Below are positions 26,056 through 32,536 of a stretch of DNA of 64,000 nt, one piece after another. This DNA comes from Deltaproteobacteria bacterium. Its GTDB lineage: Bacteria > Desulfobacterota > Desulfomonilia > UBA1062. The stretch lies in contig JAGOOG010000001.1 of NCBI GenBank assembly GCA_017992605.1, forward strand, positions 70,655 to 134,654, given 5' to 3'. The notes under the pieces were generated by a model. That model made no database searches. It was not told the DNA's origin and saw only the letters and a list, made by a program, of their open reading frames with translations. Made by a program: the position numbers and the translations under genes. Within the stretch, counting starts at the first letter, position 1. Each line of letters begins with the position of its first letter.

Positions 26056-26976
26056 ATGAAAGAAGAGAAGAAAGAGCTGTTGACCGTCAGGGAGGCATCC
26101 CGGATCCTCAAGATCAACGAGAAGAAGATCTATGCCCTTCTCAACGAGGGGAGGCTGCCGGGCACCAAGGTGACCGGGAAGTGGCTCTTCCCCAGGGCGG
26201 AGCTGGAACAGTTCATGACCGGGAAGGCCCACGAGACGGTGAGGCGGTCGTTCTGGGAGTCGGTGGTCAACAAGAAGGTCCTGCTCCTGTGCGGGTCGGA
26301 CGACCCGGTCATCGCCATGGCCCAGGGGGTCTTCCACGCCGTCGAGCCCGAGCTGCTCCTGTTCTCGTCCAGCGTGGGGAGCAGGGAAGGGATACGCCTG
26401 CTCAGGGACGGGTTCTGCACCGTTGCAGTGAGTCACCTGTACGACGACGACCAGAAAGACTTCACCTTTCCCGTCATACGCGAGTACTTCGATGACCCTG
26501 GCGAGGTCGTTGTGGTCAACCTCTTCTATCGCAACATCGGATACGTATCCAAACAGTCAGCGGTATCGTCCCTCAGGGAGGCGGCAGAGGGGGGGATGCG
26601 CTTTGTCAACCGCCAGAAGGGCTCGGGCGTCAGGGCCTTGGTAGACCGGTTCATGAGGCAGGAAGGGATCGATCCGGAGAACCTGAAAGGGTACGATTCC
26701 GAGGTATTCACCCATTTCGACGTGGTGAGGTCCGTAGCAGGCGGTGCGGCGGACCTGGGCATCGCGGCCGAATCCGCCGCCGCGGGGTCCCGGCTGACCT
26801 TCGGGTTCATCTTCGAAGAGCGCTTTGACATGATAGTGAGGAAATCCTCCTACTTCGACCGTCATGTGCAGGCGTTCGTGGAGTTTGTCAGATCGGAACA
26901 CTTCAGCAACTTGCTCGGGACTCTGAAGGGCTACAGCAGCAGGGATACAGGACGGGTCGTATATGAAAAACAATAA
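26056..26976 (+). CDS. TunR-like tungstate/molybdate-responsive regulator (N-terminal excisionase/MerR-type HTH fused to periplasmic-binding-protein-like COG1910 domain)
   Basis: N-terminal LLTVREASRILKINEKKIYALLNEGRLPGTKVTGKWLFPRAELEQFM is an excisionase-family HTH. The remainder is PBP-like. Located immediately upstream of tupABC, matching the described TunR family of sulfate reducers. Confidence 0.6.
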   Translation: MKEEKKELLTVREASRILKINEKKIYALLNEGRLPGTKVTGKWLFPRAELEQFMTGKAHETVRRSFWESVVNKKVLLLCGSDDPVIAMAQGVFHAVEPELLLFSSSVGSREGIRLLRDGFCTVAVSHLYDDDQKDFTFPVIREYFDDPGEVVVVNLFYRNIGYVSKQSAVSSLREAAEGGMRFVNRQKGSGVRALVDRFMRQEGIDPENLKGYDSEVFTHFDVVRSVAGGAADLGIAAESAAAGSRLTFGFIFEERFDMIVRKSSYFDRHVQAFVEFVRSEHFSNLLGTLKGYSSRDTGRVVYEKQ

Positions 26977-26992
26977 GAAGGGAGAGATAGGC

Positions 26993-27832
26993 ATGAGGAA
27001 AAGTTTTGGTAAATATTTGTTCGCTACACTCGTTATAGGTTTCTTCGTCTGCCTCACGACCATGAGTGTCTCGGCAGAGGAGAAGACACTCATGATGGCC
27101 ACTACCACGAGCACGGACAATACCGGTCTGCTGGACTACCTGGCGCCGCACTTCAAGGCCGACACCGGAATCGAACTTAAGTGGACGGCCGTGGGAACCG
27201 GCAAGGCGCTCGCCCTGGGCAGAAACTGCGACGTGGACGTGCTCTTGGTGCATGACCCGGATTCTGAAAAGGCGTTCATTGATGACGGGAGCGGTATTGA
27301 CAGGACGCAGATCATGTACAACGACTTCATTGTCATAGGACCCCCGGAAGACCCTGCAGGAATAAAAGGAAAGAATGTACGGGACGCATTCCAGGCAATC
27401 GCCGCAAAGAAAGCCATATTCTCGAGCCGAGGCGACAAGTCCGGCACCCACATGATGGAGCTCTCGTTGTGGAAAGCCGCCAGCGTGACCGAGCCCGACA
27501 AGGAACAGTGGTACGTACAGACAGGCCAGGGCATGCTTCCCACCATCACCATAGCAGCCGAGCGGATAGGGTACACCCTGACCGACCGGGGTACCTACAT
27601 CAAATACGAGAACAACTTCAAGGGCAATCCGCCGCTCGTGATACTGGTAGAAGGCGATGAGGCCCTGTTCAACCAGTACAGTGTCATTGCCGTGAACCCG
27701 AAGAAGTGCGAAAAGGCAAAATATGACCTGGCAACAGCCTTCTCGAAGTGGATGGCATCCCCGAAGACCCAGAAGCTCATCGGCGATTTCAAGATGATGG
27801 GCAAACAGCTCTTCACACCTAATGCAAAATAG
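26993..27832 (+). CDS. tupA: tungstate ABC transporter substrate-binding protein
   Basis: Signal peptide and the TupA-specific TTTSTDNTGLLDYL motif. ModA/TupA PBP fold. Confidence 0.8.
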   Translation: MRKSFGKYLFATLVIGFFVCLTTMSVSAEEKTLMMATTTSTDNTGLLDYLAPHFKADTGIELKWTAVGTGKALALGRNCDVDVLLVHDPDSEKAFIDDGSGIDRTQIMYNDFIVIGPPEDPAGIKGKNVRDAFQAIAAKKAIFSSRGDKSGTHMMELSLWKAASVTEPDKEQWYVQTGQGMLPTITIAAERIGYTLTDRGTYIKYENNFKGNPPLVILVEGDEALFNQYSVIAVNPKKCEKAKYDLATAFSKWMASPKTQKLIGDFKMMGKQLFTPNAK

Positions 27833-27846
27833 CGGCAAGAAGCGAC

Positions 27847-28536
27847 GTGGGGTACATCAGCGAGGGATTCATACGGGCCATTGACCTGCTGGCCTCCTTT
27901 GACGAGGAGACCTATTCGGCTGTGTTCACCACCATCAGGGTGAGCGCCATGTCCATAGCCGCCAGCCTCGCAATCGGGATACCTGTCGGGTTTGCCCTCG
28001 GGTACTTCACCTTCCCGACCAAAAGGCAGGTGCGGGCAGTGGTCGATACCATGCTCGCCCTGCCCACCGTCGTGGTCGGGCTCATCGTCTACACATTCAT
28101 ATCACGCAGGGGTCCCTTGGGAGAATTCGAGCTCCTGTACACCCAGCCCGGCATCGCCATCGCCCAGACCCTGCTCGTGGTCCCCATCGTCATATCGCTC
28201 ACCGCCACTGCCGTGGAGGGCCTTGACCGGAGACTGAAACCCACCCTGCACGCACTGGGTGCCCGGGGGGCACAGATCGCCCTCACCAGTCTCATGGAGG
28301 CACGCTACGCAGTGCTCATCGCTGCCATCACCGCGTACGGCCGTGCCATCTCCGAGGTGGGCGCGTCCATGATCATAGGCGGCAACATCAAGTGGCACAC
28401 CCGCACCATTACCACGGCCATCGCCCTGGAGACCGGCAAGGGAGAGTTCGGCATGGCCATAGCCCTCGGCCTTGTCCTGCTCCTGCTGGCGTTCCTCGTC
28501 AACGGCAGCCTCGCGGTCCTGAGGAAGAGGTCATGA
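27847..28536 (+). CDS. tupB: tungstate ABC transporter permease
   Basis: GTG start. Five to six TM helices. EAA-like loop ALGARGAQIALTSLMEARYAV. Confidence 0.8.
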   Translation: MGYISEGFIRAIDLLASFDEETYSAVFTTIRVSAMSIAASLAIGIPVGFALGYFTFPTKRQVRAVVDTMLALPTVVVGLIVYTFISRRGPLGEFELLYTQPGIAIAQTLLVVPIVISLTATAVEGLDRRLKPTLHALGARGAQIALTSLMEARYAVLIAAITAYGRAISEVGASMIIGGNIKWHTRTITTAIALETGKGEFGMAIALGLVLLLLAFLVNGSLAVLRKRS

Positions 28537-29561
28537 GCCCGAAGCCGCATCTCTATCAGGTCAAAGGTCTCGTGTTCCGCTACGGGGAGCGCTTCGAGCT
28601 GAACATCCCGGATTTTTCCATCGAACCAGGATCGGCGGTGGGCCTCATCGGCCCCAACGGCGGGGGCAAGACCACCCTGCTGAGGATCCTCGCCTTCATA
28701 GAAAGACCCCAGGGTGGTGAAATCCTCTTCGATGGAGAAAGGACCCGCGTCGAGGACGCCCCGTTGACCCGCTCGGTGAGCATGCTCCTCCAGGAGCCGT
28801 ATCTGCTCAAGCGCAGCGTATTCGAAAACGTGGCCTACGGGCTCAAGGTCAGGGGAGAGAGAAAGAGGCTCAAACAAAAGGTGGAGGAGGCTCTAGGCAC
28901 CGTGGGGCTGGACTTTCAGGATTTTTCCCGGCGCTCGTGGTACGAGCTGTCGGGCGGAGAGGCCCAGCGGGTCGCCCTGGCGGCACGCCTGATCCTCAAG
29001 CCCAGGGTCCTCATACTCGACGAGCCGACTGCCAGCGTGGACGAGAAGAGCGCCCTGCTCATCAAGGATGCAGTCATCGAGAGCCGCAGCAAGGACGGCA
29101 CCACCCTGATCATCGCGAGCCACGACCACTTCTGGCTCAACAGCATTACCACCGATATCAGGCGGGTATACAGGGGACGTGTCCTGGGAACAGCCGTGCG
29201 GAATGTCATGATCGGGCCGTGGGTCGACATCGGCGAAGGCCTCTGCAGGACCACCCTTCCCGACGGGCAGCCCGTCATCGCGACGTGCGCGCCGCTTCCA
29301 GACATGCACGGCATGATCGACCCCTCGGACATCGTCATCTCGCTGGACAGACCCACCATGATGTCAGCCCACAACACGATTCAGGCCGTCGTCATGTCCC
29401 TTGAGATGAACGGTGACACCGGCATCGTGAACGTTTCACTGGACACAGGGGGGTTCAGGGTCCTTGCCCGGGTCACGAGGCACACGGCCAGGGAGATGAA
29501 CCTACTCCCGGGCGAGAAGGTGTGGGCGGTCTTCAAGGCCTCGTCAATCAAGTGGGAGTGA
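28533..29561 (+). CDS. tupC: tungstate ABC transporter ATP-binding protein with C-terminal TOBE/Mop domain
   Basis: ATGA start/stop overlap with tupB. Walker A GPNGGGKTT, signature LSGGEAQRVALA, Walker B ILILDEPTASVD. C-terminal about 130 aa Mop-like beta domain. Confidence 0.85.
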   Translation: MSPKPHLYQVKGLVFRYGERFELNIPDFSIEPGSAVGLIGPNGGGKTTLLRILAFIERPQGGEILFDGERTRVEDAPLTRSVSMLLQEPYLLKRSVFENVAYGLKVRGERKRLKQKVEEALGTVGLDFQDFSRRSWYELSGGEAQRVALAARLILKPRVLILDEPTASVDEKSALLIKDAVIESRSKDGTTLIIASHDHFWLNSITTDIRRVYRGRVLGTAVRNVMIGPWVDIGEGLCRTTLPDGQPVIATCAPLPDMHGMIDPSDIVISLDRPTMMSAHNTIQAVVMSLEMNGDTGIVNVSLDTGGFRVLARVTRHTAREMNLLPGEKVWAVFKASSIKWE

Positions 29562-29577: not shown

Positions 29578-30408
29578 TCAATCCCTGTAGATGAGGGTGC
29601 CCACCTTCTTCCCGTTCAACGCCCTAGTGATCGTGCCCTTCTTCAGGCCGTTGACGATCTGGATCCTGTCCACGGACTCGCAGTTTGAGAGGATTTCCAG
29701 GCAGGAGCGCTCCACGATGAGGTCTTCGAGATCCCTCTTCAGGAGCTCCTTCACCCCGATCTCGGGGATAAAGGAGGCCTCCGGGTTGGTCTTGGGGTTG
29801 TCCGTGTACAGCCCGTCCTCGTCCTTGACATAGATGCAGCTCTTCGCGCCGATGAGGTTGGCCATGATCAGGGTCCCGGCGTCGGTCCTGTGGACCGGGA
29901 GCCTCCCCCTGGCCGGGGGGATGGCGAAGTAGTCGTAGGGGGGCATGCCGTGGGTGACCGGGATGCACCCCTGGGAGAAGTACGAGGGGAGCTTGAGAAG
30001 GTCGTCCTGGTGGATGCGCACGCCGTCCCAGGGGGCGAGCAGGGTCGCGATCAGGATGGCGTTCTGCTCGGATATGGTGCTGGCGAACCTGGCGATGATG
30101 CCCGTGGGCATGCCGAGCTCAAGCCCGATGGCGTAGATGTGCCTGCTCCTCGTTCCGCCGCCAGCGGTGAGCAGGATCCGGTGTTTCTTCTTCGCCGCCG
30201 CGATCTCCTTGATGATGGGGGGAAGCGCCTTGGCCCCGCGGTCGCAGATGGACTGGCCGCCTATCTTGATCACGTTCACGTCAGGGAAGAGCCGGTACTG
30301 GGGGGGTGTCTCCAGCTCGTCGTACAGGGATTTCCTGACCAGGCTCTCTCCCATGAGCCTGCTCTTGATGTGCAGACGTTTCCCGTTTTTTTCCCTCACC
30401 AGGGCCAT
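29578..30408 (-). CDS. amino-acid-kinase-fold protein (UMP kinase-like / molybdenum-storage-protein-like), 276 aa
   Basis: VNVIKIGGQSICDRG N-terminal phosphate-binding loop and LLTAGGGTRSRH glycine-rich segment typical of the carbamate/UMP kinase fold. Substrate not assignable. Confidence 0.65.
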   Translation of the reverse strand: MALVREKNGKRLHIKSRLMGESLVRKSLYDELETPPQYRLFPDVNVIKIGGQSICDRGAKALPPIIKEIAAAKKKHRILLTAGGGTRSRHIYAIGLELGMPTGIIARFASTISEQNAILIATLLAPWDGVRIHQDDLLKLPSYFSQGCIPVTHGMPPYDYFAIPPARGRLPVHRTDAGTLIMANLIGAKSCIYVKDEDGLYTDNPKTNPEASFIPEIGVKELLKRDLEDLIVERSCLEILSNCESVDRIQIVNGLKKGTITRALNGKKVGTLIYRD

Positions 30409-30455
30409 GCATGCGTCCTTTCTGGTATCATGAATGATAGTTGGGCATAACCCGA

Positions 30456-30680
30456 CTACTTGATCTCGACTTCTCCTTCGCCATACTTCCCTTTCTGGTC
30501 ACGTTCAAGAAGGACAAGTTCCGCACCGCATTCCCTGGCAATCATGTCGAGCTCGGTCTTCCGTACGTGCTTTGCATGGAACTTCAGATCGAGCCCGGCC
30601 ACGGCCACCAGGAGAAACCGGGGTTTTTTCTCTCCCTCACCAGCCTTTGTCCGTTCACGGTAAAAGATCTTTCCTGCCAT
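30456..30680 (-). CDS. small hypothetical protein (74 aa)
   Basis: ORF between two co-oriented genes with 3-nt and 47-nt spacers. No recognisable motif. Confidence 0.35.
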   Translation of the reverse strand: MAGKIFYRERTKAGEGEKKPRFLLVAVAGLDLKFHAKHVRKTELDMIARECGAELVLLERDQKGKYGEGEVEIK

Positions 30681-30683
30681 GTC

Positions 30684-31406
30684 TCATGCCTCCTTGTGCT
30701 TTTTCCCGCCGACGCATATCCAAGAACCATCTGCACTCTTTCGTACCGGGAGGACGGGATTGCCTGCCCACAGCCTCGGCCTCAGCCAGCCGCCGGTATG
30801 TACCACGTCACCGGAGCAAAGCAGAGGGGCCTGCCGGTCCACGGATACAACCACGATTCCCAGTGATTCCAAGGCTGAAACATCAACGGGGTCCGGCAGC
30901 TCTCTGAGTCGTCCGAATTCGATAAACCTGCCGCACCTGCCCAGCGCGGTGAGCCCGACCGCCGCGGCCGAACCGATGATGCCGTCCCCGGTCCCGCCAT
31001 GGGCGGAGAGGTGATGTCCCGAAGCTGCCCGAAGGGCATCCTCCTGCGTCATCACCTCACGTGTACAGCGCATGGAGAAGTCGATGATGTCAGCGAGGCT
31101 GCCGTTGTTTCCGAGGCACACGCACAGACCGGGGTCGCTGCCGTCGACGGCGTGTTTCACAAGATGTGCGGCAGCGGAGCTGATGAGGTGGTCGAATGCG
31201 GAATCGTCGGGTGCCTCGACCACTGCGCAGGCAGAGCTGTTGTGGGAGGTGTAGGGAATGCGGTCATCCACGAGGAGCTGCTGCCTGAGAACGCCCCACA
31301 GGGAACACCCGCGGGGAAGTTCCTGCTCGAACCACCGCGCGACCTTGCCCGTCCCGTAGCTGCTGTCAATCGAGTCGGTATCGTCGAAACCGATGTAGAT
31401 CCTCAT
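30684..31406 (-). CDS. TiaS-kinase-domain-like protein (homolog of the N-terminal catalytic domain of archaeal tRNA(Ile2) agmatidine synthetase), 240 aa
   Basis: N-terminus MRIYIGFDDTDSIDSSYGTGK and IPYTSHNSSACAV closely parallel the recalled archaeal TiaS N-terminus (MRVWVGIDDTDS...GMCTTY ... IPYKTRGNGAV). The protein is too short to include the ThiI-like/OB/Zn-ribbon RNA-binding domains. Needs profile confirmation. Confidence 0.5.
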   Translation of the reverse strand: MRIYIGFDDTDSIDSSYGTGKVARWFEQELPRGCSLWGVLRQQLLVDDRIPYTSHNSSACAVVEAPDDSAFDHLISSAAAHLVKHAVDGSDPGLCVCLGNNGSLADIIDFSMRCTREVMTQEDALRAASGHHLSAHGGTGDGIIGSAAAVGLTALGRCGRFIEFGRLRELPDPVDVSALESLGIVVVSVDRQAPLLCSGDVVHTGGWLRPRLWAGNPVLPVRKSADGSWICVGGKKHKEA

Positions 31407-31486
31407 AGTCGTATCCGAACCTCTACTATTCTATAGGGGTCGTGGGGGGAAAAGCAAATCCTCCTGCATCTCATGATGTTACACGG

Positions 31487-32044
31487 TCAAGGGGTTCGGC
31501 TGCTCGACGTGCAGGCCTGGTGCAGGGAAAATTCGCACCCGCAGTAACCCTGCCGGTACAGTTCCAGCTGCCGGCTGAGCTCGGTGCTCCGTGCATAGCC
31601 GTCCCTCTTCTTGAAATCGATCTCGAGGAACCCCCCGAACCCCCTGCCTATGGCGAAGACGTCCCGTGAGGACTTGTGGCGGCTCACGGTCAGGGTCGTG
31701 GTGAAGCTCGACAGGCCGAGGCGTTGCATGGCCAGGGCGGCGCGGTTGAGGTTGTATTCGAAGCACTTCAGGCATCTCTGACCCCGCTCGGGTTCGTTCT
31801 CCAGGCCCCTGACATGGGCGAGCCATGCTTCGTGGTCGTACGCATCCTCCACGAGGTCGAGGTGCATGACCCCGGCAAGCCTGCGCGTCTCGGCGAGACG
31901 CCCTCGATACTCCTCGGCCGGATATATGTTGGAGTTGCTGAAGAACAGGACGACGTCATGGCCCTGCTCCCGGAGCCTCTCCACCGATGCGGTGGAGCAC
32001 GGTGCACAGCACACGTGGAGCAGGATGGGGGATTCTTCATGCAT
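31487..32044 (-). CDS. queH: epoxyqueuosine reductase QueH (DUF208)
   Basis: LLHVCCAPCS motif and additional conserved Cys (CLKC, CGCE) of the QueH family. Confidence 0.8.
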   Translation of the reverse strand: MHEESPILLHVCCAPCSTASVERLREQGHDVVLFFSNSNIYPAEEYRGRLAETRRLAGVMHLDLVEDAYDHEAWLAHVRGLENEPERGQRCLKCFEYNLNRAALAMQRLGLSSFTTTLTVSRHKSSRDVFAIGRGFGGFLEIDFKKRDGYARSTELSRQLELYRQGYCGCEFSLHQACTSSSRTP

Positions 32045-32050
32045 GAGACG

Positions 32051-32536
32051 TCACGTTTTCGGTGCGCGGGTTGCCTCGATGCGCGAGCCCAGGATCCTGA
32101 ACAGGGGCAGCAGCACGGCATAGAGGGTGAGGAAGATGAGGGGAGCGCACAGGGCCCAGGCAAAGGCACCGTGCATGATCACCCTGGACACGGTCTGCAC
32201 GGCCAGGAGGACGTCCGTGCGCAGGAGCTCGGCCACGTAGGAGGGATCGAGGGTTGATGTGGACCCGAAGATGCGCTCACCCATGATGAGGAAGGGCACC
32301 ACCAGGATGAGCTGCAGGGGGTAGATGAGCCAGTTTCCCAGCTGGATGACCAGGAGGTTCATGCGCAGCCCGATGGCAGCCATGGTGCAGATGGCGGTGG
32401 TGGTGCCCACGATGGGGAAGATCCCGATGGTGAGCCCGCTGGCCATGCTCAGGGCGAGGCGTGCCGGGGTGATTCCCTGTCTCAGGAGCGCCGTCAGCGG
32501 CGCGATGATGTATTTTCTGAAATAGTGTCGAAGCAT
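32051..32536 (-). CDS. DUF2062-like small membrane protein
   Basis: Four TM helices. Sequence family resemblance. 6-nt spacing to queH suggests co-transcription. Confidence 0.5.
   Translation of the reverse strand: MLRHYFRKYIIAPLTALLRQGITPARLALSMASGLTIGIFPIVGTTTAICTMAAIGLRMNLLVIQLGNWLIYPLQLILVVPFLIMGERIFGSTSTLDPSYVAELLRTDVLLAVQTVSRVIMHGAFAWALCAPLIFLTLYAVLLPLFRILGSRIEATRAPKT

Follow-up and report, generated by a model that had tools for sequence, protein, structure and literature searches.

A stand-alone TiaS-like kinase-domain protein linked to a MoSto-beta homologue, a conserved 74-residue protein and tungstate import genes

Five open reading frames on the minus strand, between positions 29578 and 32536 of the 64-kb stretch of DNA analysed here (the window), were checked against the coordinates of a first-pass annotation. 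All were present where it had placed them, as were the sequences MRIYIGFDDTDSIDSSYGTGK, IPYTSHNSSACAV and VIKIGGQS...LTAGGGTRSRH. The annotated spacers were also correct, with 3 nt between the genes for the TiaS-like protein and the 74-aa protein (p74), 47 nt between those for p74 and the MoSto-like protein, and 80 nt between queH and the TiaS-like gene. The identities given to QueH and the DUF2062 protein were borne out by Pfam (Table 1).

Table 1. Position and assignment of the genes at the locus, numbered from the first letter of the window.
Feature	Coordinates	Strand	Assignment
HTH_17 + PBP_like regulator	26056..26976	plus	Pfam PBP_like E 7e-48, HTH_17 E 2e-13
TupA-like tungstate-binding protein	26963..27832	plus	NCBIfam tung_bind_TupA E 1e-112; TTTS present
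TupB-like permease	27847..28536	plus	Best match NCBIfam tung_perm_TupB, E 4e-80
TupC-like ATPase with TOBE domain	28533..29561	plus	Pfam ABC_tran, TOBE; best NCBIfam match TupC, E 4e-50
MoSto-like protein, 276 aa	29578..30408	minus	Pfam AA_kinase E 8e-24; MosB homologue
p74, 74 aa	30456..30680	minus	Conserved family, no Pfam match
TiaS-like protein, 240 aa	30684..31406	minus	Stand-alone TCKD-fold protein
queH	31487-32044	minus	Pfam QueH E 3e-57
DUF2062 gene	32051-32536	minus	Pfam E 5e-10

The regulator gene comes first in the tup operon, sharing 14 nt with tupA, and the start of tupC overlaps the stop of tupB (ATGA). The operon is convergent with the trio of TiaS-like, p74 and MoSto-like genes, and the tupC stop lies 16 nt from that of the MoSto-like gene. 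The Tup model was the best NCBIfam match for each transporter protein, with scores below the respective cut-offs (TupA 375.9 against 400, TupB 269 against 320 and TupC 170.6 against 400). The combination of HTH_17 and PBP_like domains in the regulator is an architecture that we take to be that of the tungstate-responsive TunR family; a literature search on TunR returned nothing relevant. The queH and DUF2062 genes lie upstream of the trio on the same strand, are neighbours of it in the closest relatives only, and are outside the conserved module.

A scan for promoter and terminator consensus sequences between 29.3 and 32.8 kb found no sites. Rfam searches of window positions 25-34 kb and of 19 related loci matched no Moco or cobalamin riboswitch, and no conserved shared operator was seen when the regions preceding the TiaS-like, MoSto-like and regulator genes were compared across loci. 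Thus, nothing there ties the genes to tungsten- or molybdenum-dependent regulation. A perfect palindrome at 30426-30439 of the window was missing from the relatives.

Residues ~1-155 of the 240-aa protein comprise a TiaS-type kinase domain, with the motifs DDTD (8-11), Thr19, SHNS (54-57), GSDPGLC (89-95) and GGTGDGIIGSAAAVGL (137-152). The remainder (~156-240) is a family-specific beta-rich domain, marked by R160, R168, P210 and GWLRPRLW and ending in a Lys-rich tail; these C-terminal 85 aa have no counterpart in TiaS. Among 288 members of the family, D8, D9, T10, D11 and T19 are conserved in 97%, and N56, S57, P92, G93 and the G142, I144 and G145 of the GxGxIGAxAAxG motif in at least 95%, with the other motif positions at 91% or above. 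When aligned with TiaS, the DDTD motif, T19 and the glycine-rich motif coincide with their counterparts there. The invariant Thr19 falls on TiaS Thr18, contrary to the earlier suggestion that the presumed phosphothreonine position differs.

The profile of the family matched TiaS with E 2e-13 to 2e-14, and in fold and sequence the 240-aa protein has the TCKD catalytic domain of TiaS. The match to NCBIfam NF040849 (TiaS) reached 27.2 bits against a cut-off of 600 and spanned residues 1-152 only, in agreement with the annotation of this protein as the catalytic domain alone. The Pfam comparison proposed in that annotation did return the TiaS kinase domain (TiaS_TCKD, PF22641), but with 17.7 bits (E 0.004), below the gathering threshold of 27 bits. 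Of 26 diverse family members, 13 matched PF22641 at E<=0.01 (best E 2e-7), and no other Pfam family was matched. Since the window protein is sub-threshold and the members match only in part, the family is best described, on these profile scores, as a sister family outside the current PF22641 model. It is large and unannotated, with at least 543 clusters at 50% identity. Its longer members (P0208, P0222, P0246 and P0247) showed no informative extra domain; P0247 scored 29.8 bits against PF22641. From its alignments, the TiaS-like protein has lost the tRNA-binding domains of TiaS, though not the catalytic centre at which the kinase domain uses ATP. A literature search (TiaS-like, DUF1743 and marker protein 11; MoSto with TiaS; mosB with tupA) found nothing relevant on the protein or the trio, and the earlier statement that the trio is not a described system stands as far as that search extends.

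The 276-aa protein matched MosB (PDB 2ogx_B) over its full length with E 4e-66 and ~50% identity, followed by MosA (E 4e-45), and UMP kinases at E 6e-8 or worse. It scored below the UMP kinase equivalogs (TIGR02076, 44.9 bits against 158; TIGR02075, 33.3 against 244). KIGGQS, GTRxRH, GMPPY, RTDAG and VKDEDGLYTxNPKT are conserved in the alignment with MosB, and homologues carry the JGI label 'molybdenum storage protein'. By these matches, the protein is a homologue of the beta-type subunit of the molybdenum storage protein (MoSto) and not a UMP kinase, so that only the MoSto half of its original 'UMP-kinase/MoSto-fold' label is retained. The gene is present as a single copy, with no second copy found by tblastn in the 64-kb window, and both paralogue types in relatives are beta-like. 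Rather than forming an alpha and beta pair, it has p74 as its constant partner gene. MoSto-beta homologues are common in Thermodesulfobacteriota. The protein probably forms a cage that would pump oxyanions inward at the expense of ATP and store them as polyoxometalate. Azotobacter MoSto needs two kinds of subunit and does without accessory proteins of the sort described here, and assembly as a homohexamer is therefore an assumption.

p74 is basic at its N-terminus (MAGKIFYRER...KKPRF.LVAVAG) and acidic in its tail, and its predicted structure (pLDDT 68) is beta-beta-alpha-beta. None of its 379 homologues is annotated. V71-E72 is near-invariant among close relatives, the acidic tail is not conserved in a distant subfamily, and no Ser or Thr is invariant when the broad family is compared. 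The p74 gene was found within 700 bp of all 48 MoSto-like genes in close relatives, and of 18 of 20 in another set. p74 is most likely an obligatory partner of the MoSto-like protein, as a subunit or an adaptor.

Linkage of the trio was counted in the 53 close-relative genomes whose sequence extends 3 kb or more to either side of the TiaS-like gene. Both p74 and the MoSto-like gene lay within 3 kb of that gene in 39 of these, and about a quarter had no p74 or MoSto-like gene within that distance. In a subfamily of ~35% identity, both partners are retained in 12 of 28 loci, with p74 now divergently transcribed; here the neighbourhood is conserved and the operon is not. An ECF importer, MOT1 and the MoaA/C/D/E and MoeA genes are among the other neighbours in this subfamily. 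Conservation of the trio as a unit, which had been proposed as a check, was thus confirmed in the close relatives and seen again in this subfamily. When loci were found from MoSto-like proteins, all three carried p74 with the MoSto-like gene and two carried the full trio; in the third (L087), no TiaS-like gene was found within 8 kb.

The recurring neighbours in 85 related loci were TupA (26 loci), TupB (27) and the HTH_17-PBP_like regulator (22); by clustering, the Tup-type ATPase was seen in 39 loci. These counts bear on the tupABC linkage that had been listed for checking. A MOT1 molybdate transporter, a TonB-dependent receptor, an ECF importer, and an ExbB-like protein with DUF2149 also recurred, and the Moco genes MoaA, MoaC, MoaD, MoaE and MoeA lay near the TiaS-like gene in some loci. 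Oxyanion importers (Tup, MOT1) and the storage cage were much commoner neighbours than Moco biosynthesis genes. In many loci, the TiaS-like gene heads an ECF importer operon or adjoins tup genes; because it is paired there with importers instead, the protein is not strictly an accessory of the storage cage. What is established is the homology of the proteins, the conservation of the catalytic motifs and the linkage of the genes. As the conserved neighbours are importers, regulators and some Moco genes, the biology would be that of tungsten or molybdenum and not of tRNA, and the functional hint that the first-pass annotation drew from queH in preference to tupABC is not upheld.

The linkage of the TiaS-like gene to import genes, the MoSto-like gene and p74 points to an undescribed ATP-driven step in tungsten or molybdenum handling. 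We consider it an even chance that the region is a tungstate/molybdate uptake-and-storage module in which the TiaS-like protein carries out ATP-dependent transfer in metal trafficking, a reading that draws on sequence comparison and gene context. In the scheme that we infer, including its substrate, direction of transfer and cage assembly, TupABC and the regulator would import tungstate, and the MoSto-like cage would spend ATP on loading its store. The TiaS-like protein would perform phosphoryl or adenylyl transfer within this traffic; its target may be the incoming oxyanion, which it would activate or trap, or else p74 or the cage, which it would phosphorylate. Tungsten or molybdenum would so be passed between the importers (TupABC here, ECF-type elsewhere) and the p74-MoSto store. 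The anaerobic Thermodesulfobacteriota hosts and the adjoining Tup importer, whose TupA score is just below the cut-off, suggest that the stored metal is tungsten rather than molybdenum. More tentatively, and with the balance of probability against it, the trio may be a three-part tungsten (or molybdenum) store, in which a MoSto-type cage of beta subunits only, with p74 as an obligatory subunit, is loaded or emptied through ATP by the TiaS-fold kinase.

Four other explanations were weighed. The TiaS-like protein could be a regulatory protein kinase, which would autophosphorylate Thr19 and then phosphorylate p74 or the MoSto-like protein as a switch for cage loading or release, leaving the metal itself untouched. 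TiaS is a dual protein and RNA kinase that autophosphorylates Thr18, and both the conservation of the aligned Thr19 and the position of the p74 gene, which adjoins the TiaS-like gene in both subfamilies despite the differing orientations, are in keeping with such a role. We nevertheless regard it as unlikely, given the many loci that have importers and no nearby p74 or MoSto-like gene, and given that p74 offers no residue of the required kind that is invariant throughout its family.

By analogy with the kinases that trap vitamins following ECF uptake, the enzyme might instead trap or activate an organic ECF substrate (a pterin, a cofactor precursor or a metallophore), with an indirect link to MoSto through Moco/Wco supply. 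This appears distinctly unlikely. Similarity to HPPK is confined to generic ferredoxin-like folds, the prevalence of Tup, MOT1 and the storage cage over Moco biosynthesis genes is not what it would lead one to expect, and Rfam revealed no riboswitch that would mark an ECF substrate, either between 25 and 34 kb of the window or in the 19 loci.

An RNA-, tRNA- or nucleotide-modifying enzyme acting alongside QueH and related to agmatidine synthesis, as first proposed, is very improbable. The homology to the TiaS catalytic domain is genuine, the C-terminal tail is basic, and the 80 bp that separate the gene from queH upstream showed no terminator-like site. However, all of the tRNA-binding domains of TiaS are absent, the NCBIfam TiaS score is far from its cut-off, queH is adjacent in only 3 and DUF2062 in only 1 of the 85 related loci, and no RNA-metabolism gene recurred in 160 related loci. 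Equally remote is a LysW/LysX/LysZ-like pathway without metal storage (p74 as carrier, the TiaS-like protein as ligase, and the amino-acid-kinase-fold enzyme phosphorylating the tethered substrate), which the trio parallels in form, with a small protein whose acidic C-terminus is flexible, an enzyme of the amino-acid-kinase fold and another of the ATP-dependent ligase type, but which is opposed by the full-length ~50% identity of the kinase-fold protein to MosB and its distance from biosynthetic kinases, by the loss of the p74 acidic tail in the distant subfamily, and by neighbours that are metal importers and not amino-acid biosynthesis genes.

Syntrophic and sulfate-reducing bacteria need tungsten for their formate dehydrogenases, aldehyde oxidoreductases and benzoyl-CoA reductases. 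To our knowledge, the cellular storage and allocation of this metal are largely unknown, and we know of the TCKD fold only from a single tRNA enzyme, that of tRNA agmatidinylation. According to a 2025 mBio paper (PMC11980592), tungsten storage proteins of defined physiological role were uncharacterised until the small TOBE protein Tub. MoSto is the only molybdenum store of the cage type, and it has been said to lack known homologues (PMC6448029). The MoSto-beta homologues, p74 and the TiaS-fold family together represent a testable candidate for ATP-driven tungsten or molybdenum trafficking. If the more tentative reading of a three-part store is true, anaerobes dependent on tungstoenzymes would have a high-capacity tungsten store, and metal trafficking would be a second and widespread role of the TCKD fold, one that might extend to methanogenesis marker protein 11.

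Among known systems, the closest relative of the TiaS-like protein is the N-terminal TCKD (PF22641; PDB 3AMT, 3AMU, 4RVZ, 3U02) of TiaS, the archaeal tRNA(Ile2) agmatidine synthetase. The domains that hold the tRNA in TiaS are reportedly ferredoxin-like, OB and zinc-ribbon, so that the 'ThiI-like' domain listed earlier among the missing parts is not one of them; the DDTD motif and Thr18 are said to have a catalytic role. The 240-aa protein differs in being bacterial, in having a new C-terminal domain of ~80 aa in place of those three, and in additional invariant residues (R24, Q43, S57, S90, D91, C95, R160 and P210) that differ from those aligned in TiaS chains. Its gene context, moreover, is tungsten and molybdenum transport and storage.

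The alignment of the 276-aa protein spans the whole of MosB from the Azotobacter vinelandii MoSto (MosA/MosB; PDB 2OGX, 4F6T, 6GU5), and the protein keeps the nucleotide-site motifs and GMPPY, the segment in which Met-beta149 is reportedly the proposed molybdate gate. In contrast to Azotobacter, for which we know of no p74-like protein, the window has a single beta-like gene and no alpha/beta pair; this gene is paired with p74, is associated with a TCKD-fold protein and adjoins a Tup importer, in anaerobic Thermodesulfobacteriota hosts.

Methanogenesis marker protein 11 (NCBIfam TIGR03280) contains a TCKD-like region, and residues 2-153 of the window protein weakly match its residues 134-283 (E 1e-4). 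It is archaeal and has an N-terminal extension and a different architecture; its function, like that of the TiaS-like protein, is unknown. The TOBE-domain proteins Tub and Mop (PMC11980592) are small ATP-independent hexamers that bind ~8 oxyanions and are unrelated to the trio in sequence or fold, yet they share with it the theme of tungstate and molybdate buffering and storage for tungsto- and molybdoenzymes.

The five co-oriented minus-strand ORFs described in the first-pass annotation were all confirmed in the window, and the peptide strings it quoted were found in window ORFs. The spacers from the DUF2062 gene through queH, the TiaS-like gene and the p74 gene to the MoSto-like gene were 6, 80, 3 and 47 nt. 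A plus-strand four-gene operon, to which that annotation had given little weight, was found to be convergent with the trio formed by the last three genes, ending 16 nt from the MoSto-like gene. Pfam and NCBIfam analysis assigned to it a regulator (HTH_17 plus PBP_like) and three transporter proteins: a binding protein like TupA, a permease like TupB and an ATPase like TupC that carries a TOBE domain. In NCBIfam, the top match of all three was the tungstate Tup model (TupA, E 1e-112), with every score somewhat under the curated cut-off. The gene overlaps suggest that the regulator and tupABC form a translationally coupled operon. The regulator has the domain architecture of the tungstate-responsive TunR family, reportedly described by Kazakov in 2013. 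The palindrome in the p74/MoSto-like spacer was not conserved in related loci, and is therefore probably due to chance.

Features of the window and of related loci (L-numbers)
Feature	Position	Strand	Remark
DUF2062 gene	32051-32536	-	Pfam DUF2062, E 5e-10
queH	31487-32044	-	Pfam QueH, E 3e-57
TiaS-like gene, 240 aa	30684-31406	-	ORF
p74 gene, 74 aa	30456-30680	-	ORF
MoSto-like gene, 276 aa	29578-30408	-	Pfam AA_kinase, E 8e-24
TATCATGAATGATA	30426-30439		perfect 14-nt palindrome
Regulator/tupA overlap	26963-26976	+	14 nt
tupB/tupC overlap	28533-28536	+	ATGA
tupC, mechanical ORF start	28392	+	141 nt too early
ORF, 1008 aa	51378-54404	-	high third-position GC; no Pfam match at E 1e-5
ORF, 308 aa	37012-37938	-	high third-position GC; no Pfam match at E 1e-5
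ORF, 356 aa	13744-14814	-	high third-position GC; no Pfam match at E 1e-5
L016	8.7-10.4 kb		example of architecture B
L082	11.8-14.9 kb		both p74 + MoSto-like pairs, one TiaS-like gene
L012, L024, L039, L042, L049, L075	~5.8-11.5 kb		TiaS-like gene first in ECF operon
L049	4339-4413		Rfam RF00029 match (group II intron domain) at 62 bits; TonB-receptor/TiaS-like cluster lies downstream
L166	~3-8 kb		tandem-repeated three-gene module: TiaS-like gene, ~270-aa membrane protein, ECF S component

Searches with the single TiaS-like sequence were at most suggestive. Matches were obtained to the NCBIfam TiaS model (E 1e-6, residues 1-152), the methanogenesis marker 11 model (E 1e-4), PDB 3u02, a Pyrococcus TiaS fragment (E 6e-4), Archaeoglobus TiaS (E 0.04), and Pfam TiaS_TCKD, the Thr18-Cyt34 kinase domain of archaeal TiaS (E 0.004, under the gathering score). 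Profile alignment established that the proposed kinase-domain homology is real, as it pairs DDTD, T19, IPY, the (S/N)PG loop and the glycine-rich segment GxGxIGAxAAxG with TiaS; by these pairings, the ATP-using centre is kept. The phospho-Thr position had been thought to differ, but T19 aligns with TiaS Thr18. The catalytic residues of TiaS are reportedly those of Terasaka and Osawa (2011). Among 26 diverse members, 13 matched Pfam TiaS_TCKD (E <=0.01) and none matched another Pfam family. There was no TiaS match past residue ~160, and the full-length equivalog score reached 27 bits where the cut-off is 600, in keeping with the earlier view that the remainder of TiaS is absent. A beta-rich domain spans residues ~156-240; R160, R168 and P210 are near-invariant in it, its tail is Lys-rich, and the searches run gave no recognisable relative.

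The family comprises at least 3942 matched proteins in a 90%-clustered database. An exhaustive library clustered at 50% gave 820 matching representatives, nearly all of ~240 aa, and 543 of the 820 reached E 1e-10 or better; in public sources the family goes by 'hypothetical protein' or now and then by 'TiaS'. Over 288 members, conservation was highest at D8, D9, T10, D11, G18, T19, G20, R41, T53, N56, S57, S90, D91, P92, G93, G138, G142, I144, G145, L152, G159, R160 and P210. C95 (GSDPGLC; TNPGAV in TiaS) was conserved in 92% of these members; it may be a residue for catalysis or metal contact that is specific to the family. As a suggestion only, the family-specific polar and Cys residues R24, Q43, the T-S-H-N-S-S loop, S90, D91, C95 and R160 are the kind of residue that binds oxyanions.

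The MoSto-like protein, encoded once in the window, aligned end to end with the molybdenum storage protein subunit beta (MosB) of Azotobacter vinelandii (E 4e-66). The alpha subunit followed at E 4e-45 and UMP kinases at E 6e-8 or worse; a PyrH/UMP kinase identity was rejected, as the equivalog models scored far under their cut-offs. VIKIGGQS, GTRxRH, GMPPY, RTDAG and VKDEDGLYTxNPKT are kept in the alignment; the nucleotide-site motifs of this MosB-like subunit are intact. The beta subunit is said by Brunle et al. (2019, PNAS) to be the catalytic 'molybdate kinase', with Met-beta149 in GMPPY as the proposed gate. Homologues are named 'molybdenum storage protein' by JGI and 'uridine kinase' by NCBI. 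Relatives also carry a second, likewise beta-like paralogue type (~45% identical), and two paralogous p74 + MoSto-like pairs were observed (both beta-like, with identities of ~68% and ~46% relative to the window protein).

The p74 protein, for which 379 homologues were found, matched neither Pfam nor NCBIfam and represents a conserved family without annotation. The N-terminus is almost invariant (MAGKIFYRER...EKKPRF.LVAVAG.D.K...H.RK.EL..IA...GAEL), and the C-terminal tail is variable and acidic. The structure model, of moderate confidence (pLDDT 68), is beta-beta-alpha-beta.

When one genome per species was scanned, 317 species had a relative of the TiaS-like protein. ORFs in related loci were taken from simple calls of our own. 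The best 80 loci came almost all from Thermodesulfobacteriota MAGs (Syntrophobacteraceae, Syntrophales, Syntrophorhabdus, Desulfatiglandales, Desulfobacterales, Desulfomonilia); the few labelled Coriobacteriia, Actinomycetes or Alphaproteobacteria may be binning errors. When 85 loci were searched by tblastn for the window proteins, p74 was a neighbour in 63, MoSto-like in 62, TupB in 27, TupA in 26 and the regulator in 22. By HMM, both p74 and MoSto-like genes lay within 3 kb of the TiaS-like gene in 39 of the 53 close-relative loci flanked by >=3 kb both upstream and downstream, and 0/53 had either alone. The p74 gene is invariably beside the MoSto-like gene here (<=700 bp, 48/48). Sampling from the MoSto side gave p74 + MoSto-like in 3/3 loci and the full trio in two, one of them beside the regulator and tupABC.

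Four recurring architectures were distinguished. Architecture A, as in the window, has the TiaS-like gene, one or two p74 genes and the MoSto-like gene on one strand. In B, a PadR-family regulator gene on the opposite strand separates the TiaS-like gene from p74 (23 loci), followed by a paralogous MoSto-like gene, also on the opposite strand. C joins a TonB-dependent receptor, the TiaS-like gene and an ECF importer, and D a regulator, ExbB-like, DUF2149 and TiaS-like genes. An ExbB/MotA-like gene and DUF2149 lay immediately upstream of the TiaS-like gene in L057, L063, L080, L140, L149 and L164, which are metagenome contigs and MAGs labelled Coriobacteriia or Actinomycetes. A MOT1-type molybdate transporter recurs as a neighbour.

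The products of the ECF operon are an ATPase of ~460 aa in which A and A' are fused, a T component of the CbiQ type, a membrane-anchored protein of ~170 aa and an S component of ~185 aa that matched neither Pfam nor NCBIfam. A TonB-dependent receptor or lone TupA gene often precedes the operon. It may be an undescribed tungsten/molybdenum-related importer. The TiaS-like gene also comes first in this operon in L089, L091, L126 and L167. In L163, L167, L144 and L148, the cluster continues into MoaA, MoaC, MoaD, MoaE and MoeA, and the TiaS-like gene there sits within a complete island for the supply of tungsten/molybdenum cofactor.

The trio partnership recurs in a distant subfamily, ~35% identical to the window protein and recovered from metagenomes without taxonomy. 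Across 48 loci >6 kb, the neighbours were TupA (32), MoSto-like (23), ECF T and S components (18 each), TupB (16), MOT1 (5) and MoaA (5), with MoaD, MoaC, MoaE, MoeA, DUF134 and ExbB-like/DUF2149 also present. A profile also recovered p74 in these loci, where its conserved core is KIF.RER...PRF..VAV.G.DLK...H.RK.EL..IA...GAE.V.LPRGE. It lay beside the MoSto-like gene in 18/20 cases and, in all 12 p74-bearing loci among 28 with enough flank, on the strand opposite the TiaS-like gene and just upstream of it. As the partnership survives changed gene order, orientation and sequence, it is the signature of a functional link, not of common descent of one operon.

The evidence is comparative throughout. 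The trio is embedded in tungstate/molybdate import genes and, at some loci, cofactor-synthesis genes, and the adjacent Tup system suggests tungsten as the metal here. The TiaS-like protein has the TCKD fold, and its nucleotide and phosphotransfer centre is intact; it would carry out ATP-dependent phosphoryl or adenylyl transfer within metal trafficking. Its gene stands beside the store or heads the importer operon, which favours a step between import and deposition or mobilisation; the protein might activate or trap the oxyanion, or phosphorylate p74 or the cage. A purely regulatory protein kinase is a rival reading of the TiaS-like protein, and a LysW-like carrier pathway is a rival reading of the trio. 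The RNA-modification enzyme hinted at through queH is a further, very unlikely rival: by tblastn, queH was a neighbour in only 3/85 loci and DUF2062 in 1/85, and the presence of queH is incidental, a feature of the closest relatives of the window.

In the favoured reading of metal trafficking, the MoSto-like protein, probably with p74 as subunit or adaptor, would form a cage storing tungsten or molybdenum as polyoxometalate in an ATP-driven manner, by analogy with Azotobacter MoSto. That protein stores >100 Mo atoms, is ATP-loaded, also takes tungsten, and was described with 'no known homologs' (PMC6448029); tungsten storage was uncharacterised before Tub, a small TOBE-domain storage protein (PMC11980592). 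In the searched literature, neither a link between MoSto and TiaS nor any account of TiaS-like proteins in bacteria was found. A TCKD family and a MoSto architecture, both new, are joined in an undescribed module. The TiaS-like protein resembles the kinase domain of TiaS but, given its missing tRNA-binding domains and low equivalog score, is not TiaS. The MoSto-like protein, assigned by sequence, differs from the described Azotobacter system in pairing a single beta-type subunit with p74.
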